Of a stretch of 64,000 bases of DNA, positions 1,481-7,474 are shown piece after piece. Below the pieces are notes generated by a model. It saw only the letters and a program-made list of their open reading frames with translations, made no database searches and was not told the origin of the DNA. Origin of the DNA: Vicinamibacteria bacterium (GTDB taxonomy: Bacteria > Acidobacteriota > Vicinamibacteria > Marinacidobacterales > Marinacidobacteraceae); assembly GCA_963555995.3 (NCBI GenBank), contig OY821641.1, positions 1,280,001 to 1,344,000 of the forward strand, given 5' to 3'. Position 1 is the first letter of the stretch. Each line of letters starts with the position of its first letter. The translations under genes and the position numbers were made by a program.

Positions 1481-2260
1481 TTAGCGGCCGTTCGAGGCGC
1501 GGAGCAGGATTTCGAAGCCGGTCACCGAGGCGGGGACCCGCAGCTCGTCCGCGTCCGTCGCGGGTTCGGTCGGGGTCCCGGCGGCTTCGAGGGCGCGCCG
1601 GTCGGCTGCGAGGTCCGGGGTCTCCAGCACCAGCGCCCGGAGGCCGGGGGGGCCGGGCGCGAAGCGGAGCCGGCAGCCGTTCGGGAAGGGGACGATCACC
1701 CCGCCGCCGTTCGCGGGCTCGAACTCCACGTCGAAGAGCTCCCGGAACCGCCTGCCCGCGGCTTCGGGGTCGCCGCTCCCCGCGACCACCTCGGCGAGCC
1801 GGGTCACGGAGAGCAGGGGACTGACCCGCGCGGGCGGCGGGTCGGGCCAGTTCCAGCTCGACGCGTGCGGCTGGATCAGCTCCACGGTGAAGCCGCAGGC
1901 GTCCTCCGGATAGACGAACGCCTCGAACCCGTCCGCCGCGGGGAAGATGCGGTCCTCGAAGATGGGGGCGGACTCCTTCACGCGGGCCACCGCGCCCTCG
2001 ATGTCGTCGGTCTCGATGGCGATGTGTTCGAGCCCCTCGCCGACGGTGCGGAGGTACTGGCAGACCCGCGCCTCCGGGTTCCAGTTGTGGACCACGTGCA
2101 GCCAGCACTCGTTGCCGAGGAGCTTCCGGGAGTCGAGCTGGAAGCCGCGCCCCTGGTCGGTGCGCAGCTCGGCGGGTTCGAGCCCGACCTGGCGGAGCCG
2201 CTCGGCGGCGGAGGCGTGGCCCGCGTGGGCGGTGCCGATGTGCTGGAGACGGAGGATCAT
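1481..2260 (-). CDS. VOC/glyoxalase-family protein (methylmalonyl-CoA epimerase-like N-terminal domain)
   Basis: LQHIGTA...GEGLEHIAIETDDIE...FVYPEDACGFTVELIQ VOC motifs; second degenerate VOC-like half. Confidence 0.75.
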   Translation of the reverse strand: MILRLQHIGTAHAGHASAAERLRQVGLEPAELRTDQGRGFQLDSRKLLGNECWLHVVHNWNPEARVCQYLRTVGEGLEHIAIETDDIEGAVARVKESAPIFEDRIFPAADGFEAFVYPEDACGFTVELIQPHASSWNWPDPPPARVSPLLSVTRLAEVVAGSGDPEAAGRRFRELFDVEFEPANGGGVIVPFPNGCRLRFAPGPPGLRALVLETPDLAADRRALEAAGTPTEPATDADELRVPASVTGFEILLRASNGR

Positions 2261-2295
2261 GGTGTCTTGTGGGGGTGGAACGGCTGGGAGAGAGC

Positions 2296-2484
2296 GGGAG
2301 CGCCGGTCTTCAGACCGGCATCGCGGCCGAAGGCCGCCAAACTCCCGTGGCCAGCGGGCCGGATGGCGTACCGCCATCCCGTGTGGCGCAACGCCACACG
2401 GATTGGCGCAACGTCATGCGGCAACGCAACACCGGGAGTTTCGCCCGCTGCGCGGGCGGTGCCGGTCTGAAGACCGGCGCTCCC
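2296..2484. repeat. REPIN-like element with 25-bp perfect terminal inverted repeats
   Basis: GGGAGCGCCGGTCTTCAGACCGGCA (2296-2320) and its exact reverse complement (2460-2484); internal hairpins GCGGCCGAAGGCCGC and GTGGCGCAACGCCAC. Confidence 0.85.
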
Positions 2485-2516
2485 GGCTGGCGGCACCTGT
2501 TTGGTCACGGGGTTCT

Positions 2517-2600
2517 TCAATCCACCCCGAGGTGGTGGAGGACGAAGGCCCAGCGGTCGGCTTCGAGTTCGACCCGCATGGAGAGCGGCATCCCGCCGCC
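2517..2600 (-). pseudogene. Stranded duplicate of the last 28 codons of the prolyl oligopeptidase gene
   Basis: 76/84 nt identical to 3719-3802; encodes GGGMPLSMRVELEADRWAFVLHHLGVD*. Confidence 0.9.
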
Positions 2601-2613
2601 GCGAAGCTGAGCG

Positions 2614-3240
2614 CTACGCACGCTTCCGCTGGGCAAGGTCAAGATCGTGCTGCTTTCTCGGCAAGGCGAACTCGTAGCCCTCCCGCGACGGGGTCAGGTA
2701 GGTGATCGCCCAGTAGAAGTCATCAAGCGGCACAAAGACTCCGTTCTGCTCGGCCCATGCCCGCATCCGGGGGTTGCACGCGTGCGCCCAGGAGAGGATT
2801 TCGACCCGCCAGCCGCGGCGATGCATTCGTTCGAGCGTGCTGTGAAAGCCGTATCCCTCCCGGTACCCGGCGCCGTCGCCGGTGAGCAGGACGACGGTTC
2901 CCGGATCGCCGTTGTGGTCCAGCGCATCCTCCAGCATTCTCAACTGCAGAAAGCGGTCGGGAACCTCCTGTTCCCCTCGGGTCGGGTCGCCCCGGTCGAA
3001 GAGCTGGACCTCCACCCCCAGACCCTCCATTCGATTCCACAACTGCCGCAGCTCGGGTGGGACCGAGCCGGCGGCGACGGCCCGGGCGACCTTCCGATCC
3101 GCGTGCGCCAGGCGGAGCAGGTTTTCGAAGTGAACGCGAACCCGGTAGCGCGCGTCGGGTCCGGCTTCCCGTTCTTCGGCGTGGCGCCGCGCCTCGATGA
3201 AGATGTTCGAGTTGTCCCAATAGACAAAAACCGAGTTCAT
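2614..3240 (-). CDS. NYN-domain (LabA/DUF88, PIN-like) predicted nuclease
   Basis: VFVYWDNSN...EQEVPDRFL...VVLLTGDG...GWRVEILSW...FVPLDD motifs typical of NYN domains. Confidence 0.85.
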   Translation of the reverse strand: MNSVFVYWDNSNIFIEARRHAEEREAGPDARYRVRVHFENLLRLAHADRKVARAVAAGSVPPELRQLWNRMEGLGVEVQLFDRGDPTRGEQEVPDRFLQLRMLEDALDHNGDPGTVVLLTGDGAGYREGYGFHSTLERMHRRGWRVEILSWAHACNPRMRAWAEQNGVFVPLDDFYWAITYLTPSREGYEFALPRKQHDLDLAQRKRA

Positions 3241-3444
3241 CGTCGCGGGTGGCCTCCTGGCTGTTCTGGCTGGAAAATCCTAGCCCACGGATCGCGCCGC
3301 ACCCCGGCTCCGGCCGGACCGTCGGAGCGAGTAGCGCTGCGTGCGCGGCCTGCGGCCGCGGTGCCGGTCGGAAGGCCCCCACCGGGATTAATCCTCATGT
3401 GCGAATTCTCCGGCGCCTCCGGTCCGTCATGAAGATGGCGGAAA

Positions 3445-3693
3445 CGGCTTGGAGCGCCGGCTTCAGCCGGCACAGCCCGCCGCAGGCGGGCGGGCGACGT
3501 TTCGCTGTTCGCGGTGATGGACCTGGGGCCGACGCCATCGCGCGGGGCAGCGTCGTGCCGTGCGCGGCGCGGAGCGCCGCGGTGCCGGTCTGGAGACCGG
3601 CGTTCCAAGCCGGTGCGTCGTGCGGCGGAACAGCTCCACGCACCTCGCGGCCCTGCGGGCCGCGGTGCCGGCTGAAGCCGGCGTTCCAAGCCG
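3445..3693. repeat. REPIN-like element (three REP copies)
   Basis: CGGCTTGGAGCGCCGGCTTCAGCCGGCAC (3445-3473) matches the inverted copy at 3665-3693 at 28/29; third copy at 3582-3612. Confidence 0.85.
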
Positions 3694-3718
3694 GCTGCGT
3701 GGTTTGGCCCATCGGTGC

Positions 3719-5872
3719 TCAGCCGACCCCGAGGTGGTGGAGGAGGAAGGCCCAGCGGTCGGCTTCGAGTTCGACGCGCATGGAGACGGGCATGCCGCCG
3801 CCGTGGCCGGCGCTCTTCTGGATGCGGATGAAGACGGGGTTGGGGCCGTCGCCGTGGACCTCCTGGATGCGGGCGGCGTACTTGAAGGAGTGGCCGGGGG
3901 CGACCCGGTCGTCGTGGTCGGCGGTGGTGACGAGCGTGGGCGGGAAGTCCTCGCTCGGCGCGACGTTGTGGTACGGCGAGTAGGCGCGCAGCACCTCGAA
4001 CATCTCGGGGTCGTCGGGGCTGCCGTAGTCGGAGGTCCAGGCCCAGCCGATGGTGAACTTGTGGAAGCGGAGCATGTCCATGACCCCGACCGCGGGGAGC
4101 GCCGCGCCGAAGAGTTCGGGGCGCTGGTTCAGGACCGCCCCGACGAGGAGGCCGCCGTTCGAGCCGCCGGCGATGGCGAGGCGGGACGGCTGGGTGACCG
4201 AGTCGTGGATCAGGAACTCGGCGGCGGCGATGAAGTCGTCGAAGACGTTCTGCTTGTTCTCCAGCATCCCGGCGCGGTGCCAGCTCTCGCCGTACTCGCC
4301 GCCGCCGCGCAGGTTCGCCTGCGCGTACACCCCGCCGCGTTCGAGGAAGACGAGGTTCGAGGGGTTGAAGCTCGGCCGCAGGCTGATGTTGAACCCGCCG
4401 TAGCCGTAGAGCAGGGTCGGGTTGTCGCCGTCCCGCGACATGTCCTTCCGGTGGGTGAGGAACATGGGGATCTGGGTGCCGTCCTCCGAGGCGAAGAACA
4501 CCTGGTTGGTCTCGTAGTCGTCGAAGTCGAAGGGGACCTCGGGGGCCCAGTGCGGCTCGGTTTCGCCCGAGGCGAGGTCGTAGCGATAGACCGAGGGCGG
4601 GAAGAGGAAGGAGGAGAAGGTGAAGTGGAGGACGTCGTCCTTGCGGGTCCCGCTCAACTGTCCGACCGAGCCGATGCCGGGTAGCGGCACGTCCCGTTCG
4701 AAGGCGCCGTCCATGGCGTGGACGGCGAGGCGGCTCTTCGCGTCGTCGAGGTAGCCGAGGACGAAGCGGTCCCCGACGATGCGCGCGGTGAGCAGGGTGT
4801 CCCCGGTCTCCGGGACGATCTCCAGCCAGTTGTCGGGATCGGGCCGCCGGATGTTGATCGCCACCACCCGGTAGCGCGGCGCGTCGTGGTCGGTCAGGAA
4901 GTAGAAGCGCTCGCCGTCGTTGCCGAGGAAGCCGTAGGAGGCGTCGAGCACGTCGAGGACGGGCACGATCTCGCCGTCGAAGCTCGGTGATGCCGGCCGC
5001 CCCAGATCCAGGACCTGGATGCCGTTCCGCTGGTCGGTGCCTTCCTGGATGTTGAAGACCGCGTAGCGGCCGTCGTCGGAAACCTGTGCGCCGACCAGCC
5101 GATTCGGGAACTCGGGGTTGGAATAGATCAGGGTGTCATTGTCCTGGGCGGTGCCGAGCGCGTGGTACCAGACGGTCTGGTTCACGTTGATGCCGCCCTG
5201 GGCGGCGTCGGGGTCCGGCTCGGGGTAGCGGCTGTAGAAGAAACCGCCGTTGTCGTGGGTCCAGGAAGCCCCGGAGAATTTGATCCAGCGGAGGTGGTCG
5301 TCGAGCTTTTCGCCGCTCGCGACCTCCATCACGTGGAACTCCCGCCAGTCGGAGCCGGCCTCACCGAGTCCGTAGGCGAGCAGCGCCCCGTCCTCGGTGA
5401 ACGCCGTCATGCCGACGCTCGTGGTGCCGTCCTCCGAGAGCTCGTTCGGGTCGAGGAGCACCTCCCAGCCGGTCGGGTCCTCGCCCGGCGACTCGATCCG
5501 GTAGAGGACGTCCTGGTCCTGGAGCCCGTCGTTCGCCCGCACGAACCACTGCTCGCCGAAGCGGAACGGGGCGCTCTGCCGCGCGTGGTCCTGGAGTTCG
5601 AGCAGGCGGGTGCGGATCGCCTCGCGCCCCGGCAGCGACCGCAGGTGGTCGAAGGTGACCTCGTTCTGGGCGTCCACCCATTCGAGGACCTCGGGGGCCT
5701 GGTCGTCCTCCAGCCAGCGGTAGGGATCTTCCACCGTGACCCCGTGGAGTTCCTCGGAGACGTCGTCCTTCCGGGTCTCCGGGTAGTCGTAGCCGCCACA
5801 GGCCGCGAGGGCCGCCGCCAGCGCGATCGCAGATCCTCGGAAGCAGATGGTGTGGAGTTCGGGTTGGCTCAT
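3719..5872 (-). CDS. Prolyl oligopeptidase (S9A), predicted lipoprotein
   Basis: DPYRWLED, LLYGYGGF, GGSNGG (catalytic Ser), DDRV, GHG; lipobox-like ALAAC; start at ATG 5872. Confidence 0.95.
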   Translation of the reverse strand: MSQPELHTICFRGSAIALAAALAACGGYDYPETRKDDVSEELHGVTVEDPYRWLEDDQAPEVLEWVDAQNEVTFDHLRSLPGREAIRTRLLELQDHARQSAPFRFGEQWFVRANDGLQDQDVLYRIESPGEDPTGWEVLLDPNELSEDGTTSVGMTAFTEDGALLAYGLGEAGSDWREFHVMEVASGEKLDDHLRWIKFSGASWTHDNGGFFYSRYPEPDPDAAQGGINVNQTVWYHALGTAQDNDTLIYSNPEFPNRLVGAQVSDDGRYAVFNIQEGTDQRNGIQVLDLGRPASPSFDGEIVPVLDVLDASYGFLGNDGERFYFLTDHDAPRYRVVAINIRRPDPDNWLEIVPETGDTLLTARIVGDRFVLGYLDDAKSRLAVHAMDGAFERDVPLPGIGSVGQLSGTRKDDVLHFTFSSFLFPPSVYRYDLASGETEPHWAPEVPFDFDDYETNQVFFASEDGTQIPMFLTHRKDMSRDGDNPTLLYGYGGFNISLRPSFNPSNLVFLERGGVYAQANLRGGGEYGESWHRAGMLENKQNVFDDFIAAAEFLIHDSVTQPSRLAIAGGSNGGLLVGAVLNQRPELFGAALPAVGVMDMLRFHKFTIGWAWTSDYGSPDDPEMFEVLRAYSPYHNVAPSEDFPPTLVTTADHDDRVAPGHSFKYAARIQEVHGDGPNPVFIRIQKSAGHGGGMPVSMRVELEADRWAFLLHHLGVG

Positions 5873-5934
5873 CGGTCTTGTTCCAAATCCTCCGTCGGCG
5901 GCAAGGGTACCCCTGGAGCGCCGGTCGGTCCTCC

Positions 5935-5963
5935 GGGAGCGCCGGTCTTCAGACCGGCATCGC
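5935..5963 (+). repeat. REP-like palindrome copy
   Basis: GGGAGCGCCGGTCTTCAGACCGGCATCGC, identical to the copy at 2296; GGCGCAACGCC hairpin nearby at about 6006. Confidence 0.8.
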
Positions 5964-6086
5964 TCCCCGACGGGGAGCGAACGTCCCATCGCCGATTTGC
6001 CGCATGGCGCAACGCCACGGCGTATGGCGCCCCTCGCGGAACGCTTGCGGCGAGCCTCGGGTCTGTTCCATCCTGTGCCCCTGACC

Positions 6087-6536
6087 ATGAGACGGACGGG
6101 ACTCGTGCTGCGAATCGGCTCCCGCGTCGCAATCGCGTCCGTCCTCCTCTGCCTTCCGGGATGCGGCGAGGATGCCGGTGTCCCGCGGTTGGCGCCTTCA
6201 CCCGCCGCTCCGAACCGCGCACCGGAAGCAACGAACCGGCGTCCCATTGCGGATGCCGGACCCACGCAGCGCGCCCGCGAAGGCGACACCGTTGTCCTGA
6301 ACGGCGCCGGGAGCCGGGACCCCGACGGGACGATCGTGAGTTACCGGTGGACACCGAGAGTCGGGAACGCGGTCACCGTGGTCCTCCAGAATCCCGAAAC
6401 CGCGACCCCCAGTTTCACCGTGCCGGATCTCGAGGAGGACACGACCTTCGTGTTCGACCTGGTGGTGACCGATGACCGCGGCGCTTCGTCGTCGGACGCG
6501 GCCGAGGTCTTCGTCACCACCTACGACGACATGTGA
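6087..6536 (+). CDS. Putative lipoprotein with a single PKD-like domain
   Basis: LPGC lipobox; RPIADAGPTQ...VVLNGAGSRDPDGTIVSYRW...FDLVVTDDRGASS. Confidence 0.8.
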   Translation: MRRTGLVLRIGSRVAIASVLLCLPGCGEDAGVPRLAPSPAAPNRAPEATNRRPIADAGPTQRAREGDTVVLNGAGSRDPDGTIVSYRWTPRVGNAVTVVLQNPETATPSFTVPDLEEDTTFVFDLVVTDDRGASSSDAAEVFVTTYDDM

Positions 6537-6597
6537 CCCGCCGGACTCCTCGTTCAATGGGCAGTTCAATACACGATCAGCGCCTAGACTGGTACGG

Positions 6598-6921
6598 ATG
6601 CCTACCCGCGGGCCCGAACGGGTCAATGCCCGCAATTCGTGTGACTTCGCCGCTCCGGTAGAGGTGTGGACCGTCGCCGCAGCGAAGTCACGGCTCTCCG
6701 AGGTGCTGCGGCGAGCCAGCGAGGTGGGGCCGCAGCAGATCGGGGTGCAGCGGCCACACGTCGTCGTGCCGCTCGATCAGTGGCTCGCCCGCGTGGAGCC
6801 CGAACGCGACTTCGGGCCGTGGCTGGTCGAGAACGCCCCGCGCGGTTGTGAGATCGAGCTCCCGAGCCGCGAGGACGGCGACCGGGAGATTCCTTTCGCG
6901 GATTCGGCTGGCGGGGGATGA
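6598..6921 (+). CDS. Phd/YefM-family antitoxin (orphan; start uncertain, GTG 6664 possible)
   Basis: WTVAAAKSRLSEVLRRASEVGPQQI matches the Phd N-terminal motif. Confidence 0.75.
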   Translation: MPTRGPERVNARNSCDFAAPVEVWTVAAAKSRLSEVLRRASEVGPQQIGVQRPHVVVPLDQWLARVEPERDFGPWLVENAPRGCEIELPSREDGDREIPFADSAGGG

Positions 6922-6949
6922 CGCCGTCGCCGGGTAAGCCGGTGCTGAT

Positions 6950-7204
6950 TCACCGGTACGCCCGACTCCGGTGTAGGACCGACTCGATACGAATCGTCTC
7001 GGCGTCGCGGTCGAACTGAAACAGGACGCGCCAATCGCCTACCCGAAGGCGCCAGCGGCGCTCCTGGCCCTTCAGCCGCAGAACGTCGCCAAAGCCGGTC
7101 TGGGCAAGCGCATCAATCGCGGTCAGTGCTCTCTTCCGAGCGGCCCCGTCGAGCCGCCGCAGATCTCGTTGCGCCCGGCCCGAAAACTCGACCGCCCAGA
7201 TCAG
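6950..7204 (-). CDS. relE: RelE/ParE-family toxin, CTG start (absent from the ORF track)
   Basis: Manual translation: (M)IWAVEFSGRAQRDLRRLDGAARKRALTAIDALAQTGFGDVLRLKGQERRWRLRVGDWRVLFQFDRDAETIRIESVLHRSRAYR*; CTGA overlap with the upstream stop. Confidence 0.88.
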   Translation of the reverse strand: MIWAVEFSGRAQRDLRRLDGAARKRALTAIDALAQTGFGDVLRLKGQERRWRLRVGDWRVLFQFDRDAETIRIESVLHRSRAYR

Positions 7205-7446
7205 GCTCCGAACTCCCGCTTGATTTCTTCCCGAGTAAAGGTGTGTCCGGTCCTGAAGTCCTCAATCCCTTCCTGAAGTGCCTGAAATCCTTCCTCGCTC
7301 AGTTCTTCCGTCTCCTCCGGAAGGTTGAGCAGGCGTTCGTAAGCGGCCCGCTGCGCCGCGGCGCGCCGGCTCTCCGGGGACCGCGCGTCGCCGACGTCCG
7401 TCCCTTCGGTGACCGGCAGTTCCGGAAGGGCAGTCTTTACGGCCAT
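7201..7446 (-). CDS. Cognate antitoxin of the RelE-like toxin
   Basis: 81 aa acidic protein ending EELSEEGFQALQEGIEDFRTGHTFTREEIKREFGA; overlaps the toxin start by 4 nt. Confidence 0.75.
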   Translation of the reverse strand: MAVKTALPELPVTEGTDVGDARSPESRRAAAQRAAYERLLNLPEETEELSEEGFQALQEGIEDFRTGHTFTREEIKREFGA

Positions 7447-7474
7447 GTCTGGATGGTAGCAGTGCCCGGATAAA

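Follow-up and report, generated by a model that had tools for sequence, protein, structure and literature searches.

How can a single accessory gene come to lie between two copies of the end of a core gene with no integrase in or beside it? This question is raised by a locus of Vicinamibacteria bacterium assembly GCA_963555995.3, an organism which is likely a sponge dweller. The window, that is the whole 64,000-nucleotide stretch analyzed (contig OY821641.1; C1:1280001-1344000 of the 3.8-Mb, two-contig genome, G000), carries on its minus strand an intact prolyl oligopeptidase gene, a cluster of repetitive extragenic palindromic (REP) sequences, a gene with a NYN domain, 12 nt, and then a copy of the peptidase tail. 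This copy is followed by a REP doublet, a glyoxalase-family gene, groES and groEL, the last two names being taken from translations (coordinates are collected in Table 1). An earlier note, made from the letters alone, had described the NYN gene as an islet from a related strain that replaced the 3' end of its host gene. From the comparisons given below, we infer that the block probably arose by recombination in which one arm was homologous and the other joint illegitimate. These two elements explain all the observations, so that no enzyme encoded by a mobile element is required.

The two tails constitute a direct repeat of 85 nt, 91% identical, with 1202 nt from one copy to the other. A blastn search of the whole genome detects these two copies and no third. 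A repeat search and a codon comparison confirmed the earlier statement that the last 84 bp of the peptidase gene recur with eight differences (2520, 2521, 2523, 2543, 2574, 2585, 2586 and 2592): four of them are synonymous and at third positions, two exchange V and L, and two lie in the last codon (G versus D). The statement that the copies bracket only a NYN gene and REP repeats is equally correct, since the intervening 1.1 kb holds a single called gene, NYN, on the minus strand, together with a genome-unique leader of ~95 nt, three full REPs and a degenerate one. A REP begins 32-34 nt past each of the two stop codons, and the gapped similarity of the tails extends through the spacer into the first REP (82% over ~146 nt). 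The proposal that each tail has its own REPIN-like doublet stands for the remnant, which is followed by an inverted doublet, but not for the full gene, behind which lies a cluster of three REPs. The cluster belongs to a genome-wide family; the internal sequence family of the doublet is a different one, with copies 82-83% identical elsewhere in the genome.

The nature of the eight differences is instrumental for deciding where the remnant came from. Within the 84-nt tail, 28 of 84 columns vary among 14 congeners. Seven of the eight differences fall in these columns, at all seven of which the base of the remnant is present in a congener, and the only private change is the V-to-L at 2586. Random placement would give this with a binomial P of ~0.003, a value that is overstated, the congeners being related and not independent. 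The remnant contains no frameshift and no stop, and it is at least 7 nt of 84 away from each of the 14 congeners and from the full copy. The full tail differs by 1 nt from G012, 2 from G014 and 3 from G005 (of 84; G numbers denote genomes and L numbers loci). The spacer behind the full tail resembles that of five congeners, and the remnant has its own spacer and the other REP doublet family. Judged from these sequences, the remnant is apparently the tail of a working, diverged allele and not a decayed copy. Since the tails, the spacers and the REP doublet families all differ, two lineages must have met at this locus, as the earlier note supposed in tracing the material to a related strain. The remnant is also still next to the glyoxalase gene, the ancestral arrangement, in agreement with the direction given in that note, with NYN incoming. 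Windowed distances to the congeners along the flanks are uninformative as to the direction of transfer, the peptidase side not being separable from the 5' half of the glyoxalase gene. Gene by gene, the distances of this genome to the congeners form a mosaic, and the peptidase is itself mosaic along its own length. As a separate observation, the 3' half of the glyoxalase gene (window 1481-1900) and about a quarter of the genes within 40 kb stand at roughly double the distance from the nearest congener group that separates the members of that group, and other genes near the locus fall inside the congener group, which points to a strongly mosaic genome.

Two versions of the recombination can be envisaged, and they would yield the same product. 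In the linear version, a donor would cross over within the peptidase and join the resident codon 690/691 12 nt beyond the NYN stop. In the circular version, a donor fragment would close at that same joint and integrate through one crossover in the 84-nt homology. Both would leave the peptidase gene whole and the old tail still attached to the glyoxalase gene, and the product would therefore survive selection. The repeats would then allow the block to loop out again or to amplify by ordinary recombination. Matches to ComEC and DprA are present in this genome, and also in 10-11 of 14 control genomes.

The comparison of relatives gives this locus its context. The peptidase is present in 26 of the 27 other family genomes (none in G007, 89% complete) and adjoins the glyoxalase gene in 19 of these relatives. 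The gap is ~5-20 nt in nine of them, five have REPs only and five carry cargo. The slot is accordingly empty, with a single tail followed by a short gap or by REPs only, in 14 of 19, all of them other species and not strains of the same species, and NYN occupies it in 0 of 19. The empty allele and the alternative cargo anticipated by the earlier note were thus both observed. The cargo consists of HEPN-like genes in G003 (one), G017 (four) and G022 (an array), of a tyrosine integrase element in G011 and of one unrelated open reading frame in G019. The HEPN-like label is based on a weak PF18735 match (E 0.011) in one of five proteins scanned, and otherwise on a motif attributed to the family. 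These genes are diverged: ~8 domains in G022 (L036:3900-9520), four genes in G017 (L040:3289-6213) and one in G003 (L039:3373-3927); in G022, the last of them continues in frame into the glyoxalase gene. A second variable slot lies upstream of the peptidase (window 5880-7470), with a REP, a small PKD-domain gene, a Phd/YefM-like gene and another small gene, and its contents also vary among relatives.

Partial duplicates of the peptidase exist in four genomes (85, 238, 477 and 476 bp), with four breakpoints and both polarities. Behind the first HEPN-like gene of G022 lies a frameshifted 3' duplicate (238 bp, 91%). G013 has a 5' duplicate (477 bp, 90%) ahead of a small two-gene block that is found without a duplicate in G004 and G001, and G021 has another (476 bp, 94%) ahead of two large genes. 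These mirror-image 5' duplicates can be viewed at L037:3214-4385 (G013) and L038:342-5116 (G021), to be compared with L045:2420-2560 (G004). At the G013 joint, 8 nt are exactly common with the G004/G001 sequence, inside a weaker similarity; that sequence is ~60% similar to peptidase codons ~160-195, perhaps an older decayed remnant reused as a joint. The flanks searched varied in length (1.5-6 kb or more), so that further cases may be missed. A pattern scan of metagenomes returned three loci, all with the peptidase beside the glyoxalase gene and no duplicate. Breakpoints at four places and in both polarities argue against a fixed att site, and the att-like, site-specific part of the earlier note is not supported.

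Similar scars occur elsewhere in the genome. They were detected by searching, with a rough gene caller (2914 genes) and masked repeats, for orphan same-strand gene fragments within 20 kb of their gene. Of 24 such fragments, 3' ends lie downstream in eight cases and upstream in one, 5' ends lie upstream in six and downstream in three, and six are internal. This polarity, 3' copies mostly downstream and 5' copies mostly upstream, is the one that leaves the gene whole. Five of the eight downstream 3' duplicates bracket genes, the NYN case included. The other four involve a methylase-like large gene, an ATPase with an 11-kb block, a citrate synthase with a helix-turn-helix gene and an ABC transporter, the last being the weakest case, with an adjacent paralog; their joints lie 444-4508 nt from the nearest REP. 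A citrate synthase duplicate is found in two of 13 genomes, one of them G001; the lengths are 56 and 88 bp, and the start points differ. Further cargo blocks with duplicated gene ends around them are at C1:177856-182384, 356621-369064, 370496-372821, 3213513-3220120 and 2552376-2556189. Read from its sequence, the 11-kb block contains genes resembling type I restriction-modification and a transposase.

Several points nevertheless weigh against recombination with one homologous arm. The donor allele not being among the sequences compared, no clear microhomology is readable at the NYN joint. It is the full tail, and not the remnant, that is closer to the congeners, so that the full tail may have been replaced at a later time and the events may have followed another order. 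A donor allele of the form peptidase-REP-NYN without a remnant was not seen in the 26 other family genomes with the peptidase, and the exact empty allele, with the GVD end next to the doublet, appears in none of the genomes examined. Textbook homology-facilitated illegitimate recombination, as presented in PMC3240628, usually deletes recipient DNA and does not duplicate it. Finally, five small duplications in this genome are anchored at the 5' ends of REPs, and a second, REP-linked route may therefore exist.

This last point leads to the alternative in which the insertion was driven by the REP system: the REP-associated tyrosine transposase (RAYT) would cut single-stranded DNA around a REP, circularize the gene tip with the REPs and NYN, and integrate the product at the gene tip, which would thereby be duplicated. 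The genome is indeed REP-rich, with ~890-920 copies in several palindrome variants, and it encodes a single RAYT, over the NF047646 cut-off and located among tandem REP-containing units. Within 700 nt, orphan gene-end copies accompany 8 of the 875 gene ends that have a REP no farther than 350 nt away, against 6 of the 4434 that have none so near (Fisher p 6e-4). Of those eight, two fall in a single region of tandem paralogs, a third lies with its REP 515 nt off, and five are REP-adjacent. These five duplications carry no cargo and comprise 34-61 bp of a gene 3' or 5' end, with the inner joint 5-16 nt from the REP, always at its 5' end. In two of three such loci compared, congeners lack both the REP and the copy (14 of 14 and 13 of 13); at the third, 15 of 15 congeners lack the copy and six have the REP. 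REP-linked long duplications are thus real in this genome, and the five small cases look like the arrival of a REP with a long target duplication. In one REP-anchored case, the start of a gene that likely encodes prolyl-tRNA synthetase, named from sequence, carries a tandemly repeated unit of 158 bp. In Escherichia coli, the enzyme cleaves at a distance of more than 400 nt from its REP and carries out strand transfer, and the capture of flanking genes has been proposed for it (PMC3333891).

The NYN joint itself, however, lies ~740 nt from the nearest enclosed REP, the 3' side of which faces NYN, and no REP is present at the joint of any of the four other 3' duplicates that bracket cargo. Microhomology with the GC-rich flank of a REP, without RAYT, may moreover suffice to make the five small duplications. 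Even under a RAYT-driven route, an exchange between cells would be needed, since the two tails are alleles of different lineages. Insertion by RAYT is for these reasons considered unlikely for the NYN block. A broader proposal, that RAYT makes small circles in which a gene tip is linked with a REP and flanking DNA, and that each circle goes back into the gene tip and so duplicates it, with the five small duplications as minimal products and the NYN block as the same reaction cutting farther, capturing a gene and moving it between species, is a little more doubtful still. To judge by titles and abstract openings, no publication on REP-linked long duplications was found.

Integrative elements are known to restore the 3' end of their target gene, and the geometry of the locus is that of such elements. 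The NYN block could accordingly be the stump of a site-specific element that targeted and restored the peptidase 3' end and then lost its integrase and nearly all its cargo but NYN. A 2.9-kb element with a P4-like tyrosine integrase does sit in the same slot of G011, and an 11-kb cargo block is bracketed by such a duplicate elsewhere in this genome. But the G011 element is bounded by REP sequence and not by a peptidase duplicate, and the breakpoints differ among the four genomes with duplicates, two of which are 5' duplicates. The nearest of the five matches to the integrase profile PF00589 is at least 550 kb away, which bears out the absence of an integrase noticed earlier. No relative of NYN was found in viral contigs (33 pattern matches, none confirmed), and plasmids gave three records at only 36% identity and none above 37%. 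The remnant is also nearly undecayed, leaving little time for the loss of an element. This reading is improbable. Independently, the G011 element (L035:2137-4700) has one short REP-core sequence repeated at its two ends, as though a REP served as its attachment site, and a related integrase in G000 (C1:697162-698343) is also followed by a REP.

Less probable again is a duplication within the genome, either in tandem and followed by a deletion or by insertion with two identical tips, after which homologous recombination with a congener would have replaced the full tail. The near identity of the full tail and spacer to G012, G014 and G005 and the mosaic peptidase agree with such a replacement, and NYN, found in this slot in no other genome examined, may come from another site. 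Yet two events would be needed plus a REP-to-REP exchange, neutral decay alone cannot produce the pattern of differences, and the REP families behind the two tails are not the same. We regard this sequence of events as very unlikely.

The assembled structure is also supported by contigs of public runs. Four public runs, X1-X4, come from at most three samples of one study, one of which may be the source of the assembly, and each contains 84-87% of the sampled words. No RNA run is listed among those containing this DNA, which is neutral as to expression, and runs with a small share that are labelled sponge metagenome do not enter into the evidence on habitat. An X2 contig matches 2460-3006 with no difference and an X3 contig, from another sample, matches 2544-3006 exactly; both bridge the NYN-remnant joint. 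Another X2 contig covers 3666-4246, so that X2 passes through both tail copies separately, and in all four runs contigs connect NYN to the REP cluster (3065-3455 or beyond). On the other side, one X4 contig fuses 3746 to 2543, leaving out exactly 1202 nt, X3 contigs end at both edges of the 30-nt identical block, and at 99% likeness none of the listed X3 or X4 contigs spans 3714-3745. In X4 itself a single contig contains NYN together with the first 16 nt of the remnant, and the fusion joint of this run is exactly the 30 shared letters, one below the assembler word size of 31 (the contigs were presumably built with 31-letter words, a size taken from the description of the run-search tool). Since contigs of two samples bridge the joint, a misassembly fusing two strain haplotypes, one with NYN and one empty, which the earlier note had named among its refutations, is extremely improbable. 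The X4 joint may stem from the assembly graph or from a real allele that has looped out: it matches the loop-out product expected between the repeats, and a congener in the sample could also supply the bridging word. No circle joint is listed among the X1-X4 contigs, contigs being all that was searched. Second alleles of the glyoxalase and NYN genes (1471-1535, 1904-1994, 3007-3046) are present in X1-X4 at ~35-45% of local depth, and related organisms thus share the samples. In all four runs the second NYN allele agrees with G020 at 6 of 6 listed sites, so that a carrier of a related allele is likely in the same samples.

Table 1. Coordinates of the features discussed (positions are those of the window unless a contig or locus is given)
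Feature	Position	Strand	Basis and remarks
Prolyl oligopeptidase (S9) gene, 717 aa, host gene, intact	3719..5872	-	PF02897 E 2.6e-117, PF00326 E 1.1e-59; start codon set by rough gene caller
Working peptidase 3' end, codons 691-717 + stop, ends GVG	3719..3803	-	repeat + congener comparison
REP cluster	3362..3686	.	REPs 3666-3686 and 3583-3605 (minus), 3452-3472 (plus), degenerate ~3362-3380
NYN leader, unique in genome	3241..3335	-	sequence comparison; ribosome-site-like purine-rich hexamer 3253-3258, -10-like hexamer 3277-3282
NYN-domain (PIN-like) gene, 208 aa, predicted RNase	2614..3240	-	PF01936
NYN trailer, 12 nt, the non-homologous joint, abuts peptidase codon 690/691	2601..2613	-	resembles G006, G020 trailers; no REP there
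Leftover peptidase tail, 27 codons + stop, ends GVD	2517..2601	-	in frame, undamaged
REPIN-like inverted doublet	2295..2485	.	REPs 2298-2320 and 2460-2482; arms 2295-2347 and 2433-2485
Glyoxalase/VOC-family gene	1481..2260	-	downstream neighbour of peptidase in 19 relatives
RAYT	L099:997-1809 = C1:751009-751821		NF047646
Five REP-anchored duplications (loci L149-L153)	C1:2738671, 3440589, 3727240, 1053398, 2766096		

The cargo itself is a predicted endoribonuclease. The protein matches PF01936 with E 1e-8 (36.2 bits against a cut-off of 24.2), and its predicted model (mean predicted local distance difference test score 88.5) gave as first Foldseek matches VPA0982 (2qip) and the MARF1 NYN domain (5yaa, 6fdl), with E 2.7e-6 to 2.5e-4, the fold being assigned from this one search. 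Identity to the solved structures is only 15-19%, and a search by sequence matched no solved structure at E up to 1. Among 58 aligned homologs, D9 is conserved in all 58, D95 in 55 and D122 in 57. The NYN motif usually has a second Asp two residues after the equivalent of D122; here, the second position after D122 is Ala in 56 of 58 homologs, and E128, D173 and D174, conserved as acids, are candidates for the fourth acidic residue. The three aspartates fit the near-invariant positions described in PMC5499597, and the protein resembles the LabA-like group of PF01936, as characterized there, by profile, by PIN-like fold and by these three core acidic residues; its fourth ligand, in contrast, is not in the usual place. 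The protein hits no family at E up to 1 among the 5027 models of PADLOC and no NCBIfam profile. A defence-type role, suggested by the other cargo of the slot, is a guess. The gene has a GC content at third codon positions at the 6th percentile of the genome. A scan of 2200-3900 for sigma-70 promoters and terminators returned zero of each, and a promoter in the NYN leader can only be presumed.

NYN is present in 8 of 28 family genomes. More widely, 2558 proteins pass E 0.001 as relatives, and two named matches at 75% identity come from metagenome-assembled genomes of Gemmatimonadetes and Chloroflexi. The seven other family loci have different neighbours, and none of them (0 of 7) has flanking direct repeats in the regions searched: 1.5 kb on each side for all seven and ~6 kb for four, the G010 locus ending ~160 nt past the gene. 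A NYN-specific mobility route is accordingly not supported, nor is the minimal route for a single nuclease gene imagined in the earlier note. The sites occupied in G006 and G017 (one shared), G018 and G021 are without NYN in G000. With G020, of another genus, the NYN gene shares 85% identity against 78% for the peptidase; with the congener G006 the values are 81% for NYN and 92% for the peptidase. The similarity to G020 is limited to 3261-2605, that is the gene with a short leader and a short trailer, and the last 20-45 nt of the leader are similar to the leaders of both the G006 and the G020 genes. These identities show an exchange of NYN across genera. Nothing relevant was found in the literature on NYN in sponge symbionts.

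Structurally, the locus is likely an insertion with long target duplication (ILTD), an already-known kind of scar. The first report of this class is said to be that of Nobusato et al. in 2000. According to Furuta, Abe and Kobayashi (2010, PMC2853133), the inserts are below 20 kb, the repeats exceed 30 bp and vary in length, no other mobile element is present, the repeats often span start or stop sites, and several phyla are concerned, with the lone nuclease gene mcrA among the cases. The NYN locus shows a unique 85-nt duplication, a 1.1-kb insert with non-coding REPs inside and no integrase or transposase gene, an empty single-copy site in relatives, duplications of variable length and position, and an intact target. 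It differs in its cargo: the 2010 search concerned restriction-modification genes, and these have their like in some of the other scars described here. That survey was made within species, and the repeats of its Table 2 are 96-100% alike (its supplementary tables may hold more diverged pairs), whereas the present repeats are 90% alike, come from two lineages and enclose REPs and a predicted RNase. The same authors suggest that the cargo triggers the event by breaking DNA, something that an RNase would not do.

Other known systems share part of this organization. Site-specific integrative elements would have an integrase and a fixed crossover site, and the NYN locus shows neither. Homology-facilitated illegitimate recombination would combine homology to a diverged donor allele on one side, offered here by the two versions of tail, spacer and REP, with 3-10 nt of microhomology at the other joint, a length into which the 8 nt at the G013 joint would fall. 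Amarir-Bouhram et al. (2011, PMC3240628) obtained partial duplications of the target gene in 56 of 60 selected E. coli clones, through one crossover of a re-circularized donor. The duplications measured 109-950 bp in 14 sequenced clones, and the remaining 4 of 60 were linear homology-facilitated events with deletions. Their products and the NYN locus have in common one homologous arm, one non-homologous joint, no integrase, and foreign DNA within a partial duplication; theirs, however, were laboratory plasmid crosses, and the linear version normally deletes recipient DNA. In the effector-immunity arrays of the Vibrio cholerae type VI secretion system, new cargo enters beside a conserved anchor and pushes the old 3' end and older cargo downstream, which is attributed to homology-facilitated illegitimate recombination (PMC5361080). 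The HEPN-like array of G022, behind the peptidase and with its own duplicate, resembles these displacement arrays. In V. cholerae, the shifted portion comes from a toxin gene and the array has a function that is known; the NYN locus has a peptidase as its anchor and gained a single gene. The amplification of REPs and bacterial interspersed mosaic elements by TnpA-REP (PMC3333891) provides a REP-rich genome with one RAYT, distant cuts with strand joining, and a proposed flanking capture. The word "duplication" is absent from the main text of that article, and the NYN joint is not REP-adjacent. The duplications of PMC3784515, of 100 kb or more, were set aside as a comparison. Among the matches listed for integrase-less islets in the literature, nothing was relevant.

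As presented in PMC2853133, the cause of long target duplications is covered by a hypothesis tied to restriction enzymes only and is not established. With a predicted RNase as cargo, the present locus argues mildly against the need for a DNA-cutting cargo. If true, the reading in which RAYT makes circles would assign an enzyme to a kind of scar that has lacked a settled cause since 2000, and REP/RAYT systems would then act as agents of gene transfer. The locus would matter more if the REP-anchored duplications proved to be products of RAYT, which is directly testable with one purified enzyme. For the biology of this family, the peptidase locus stands out as a place where nuclease-type cargo is swapped on either side. 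In this uncultured family of acidobacteria, which is likely sponge-associated, the NYN locus illustrates how single accessory genes would be added behind core genes with no mobile element involved.

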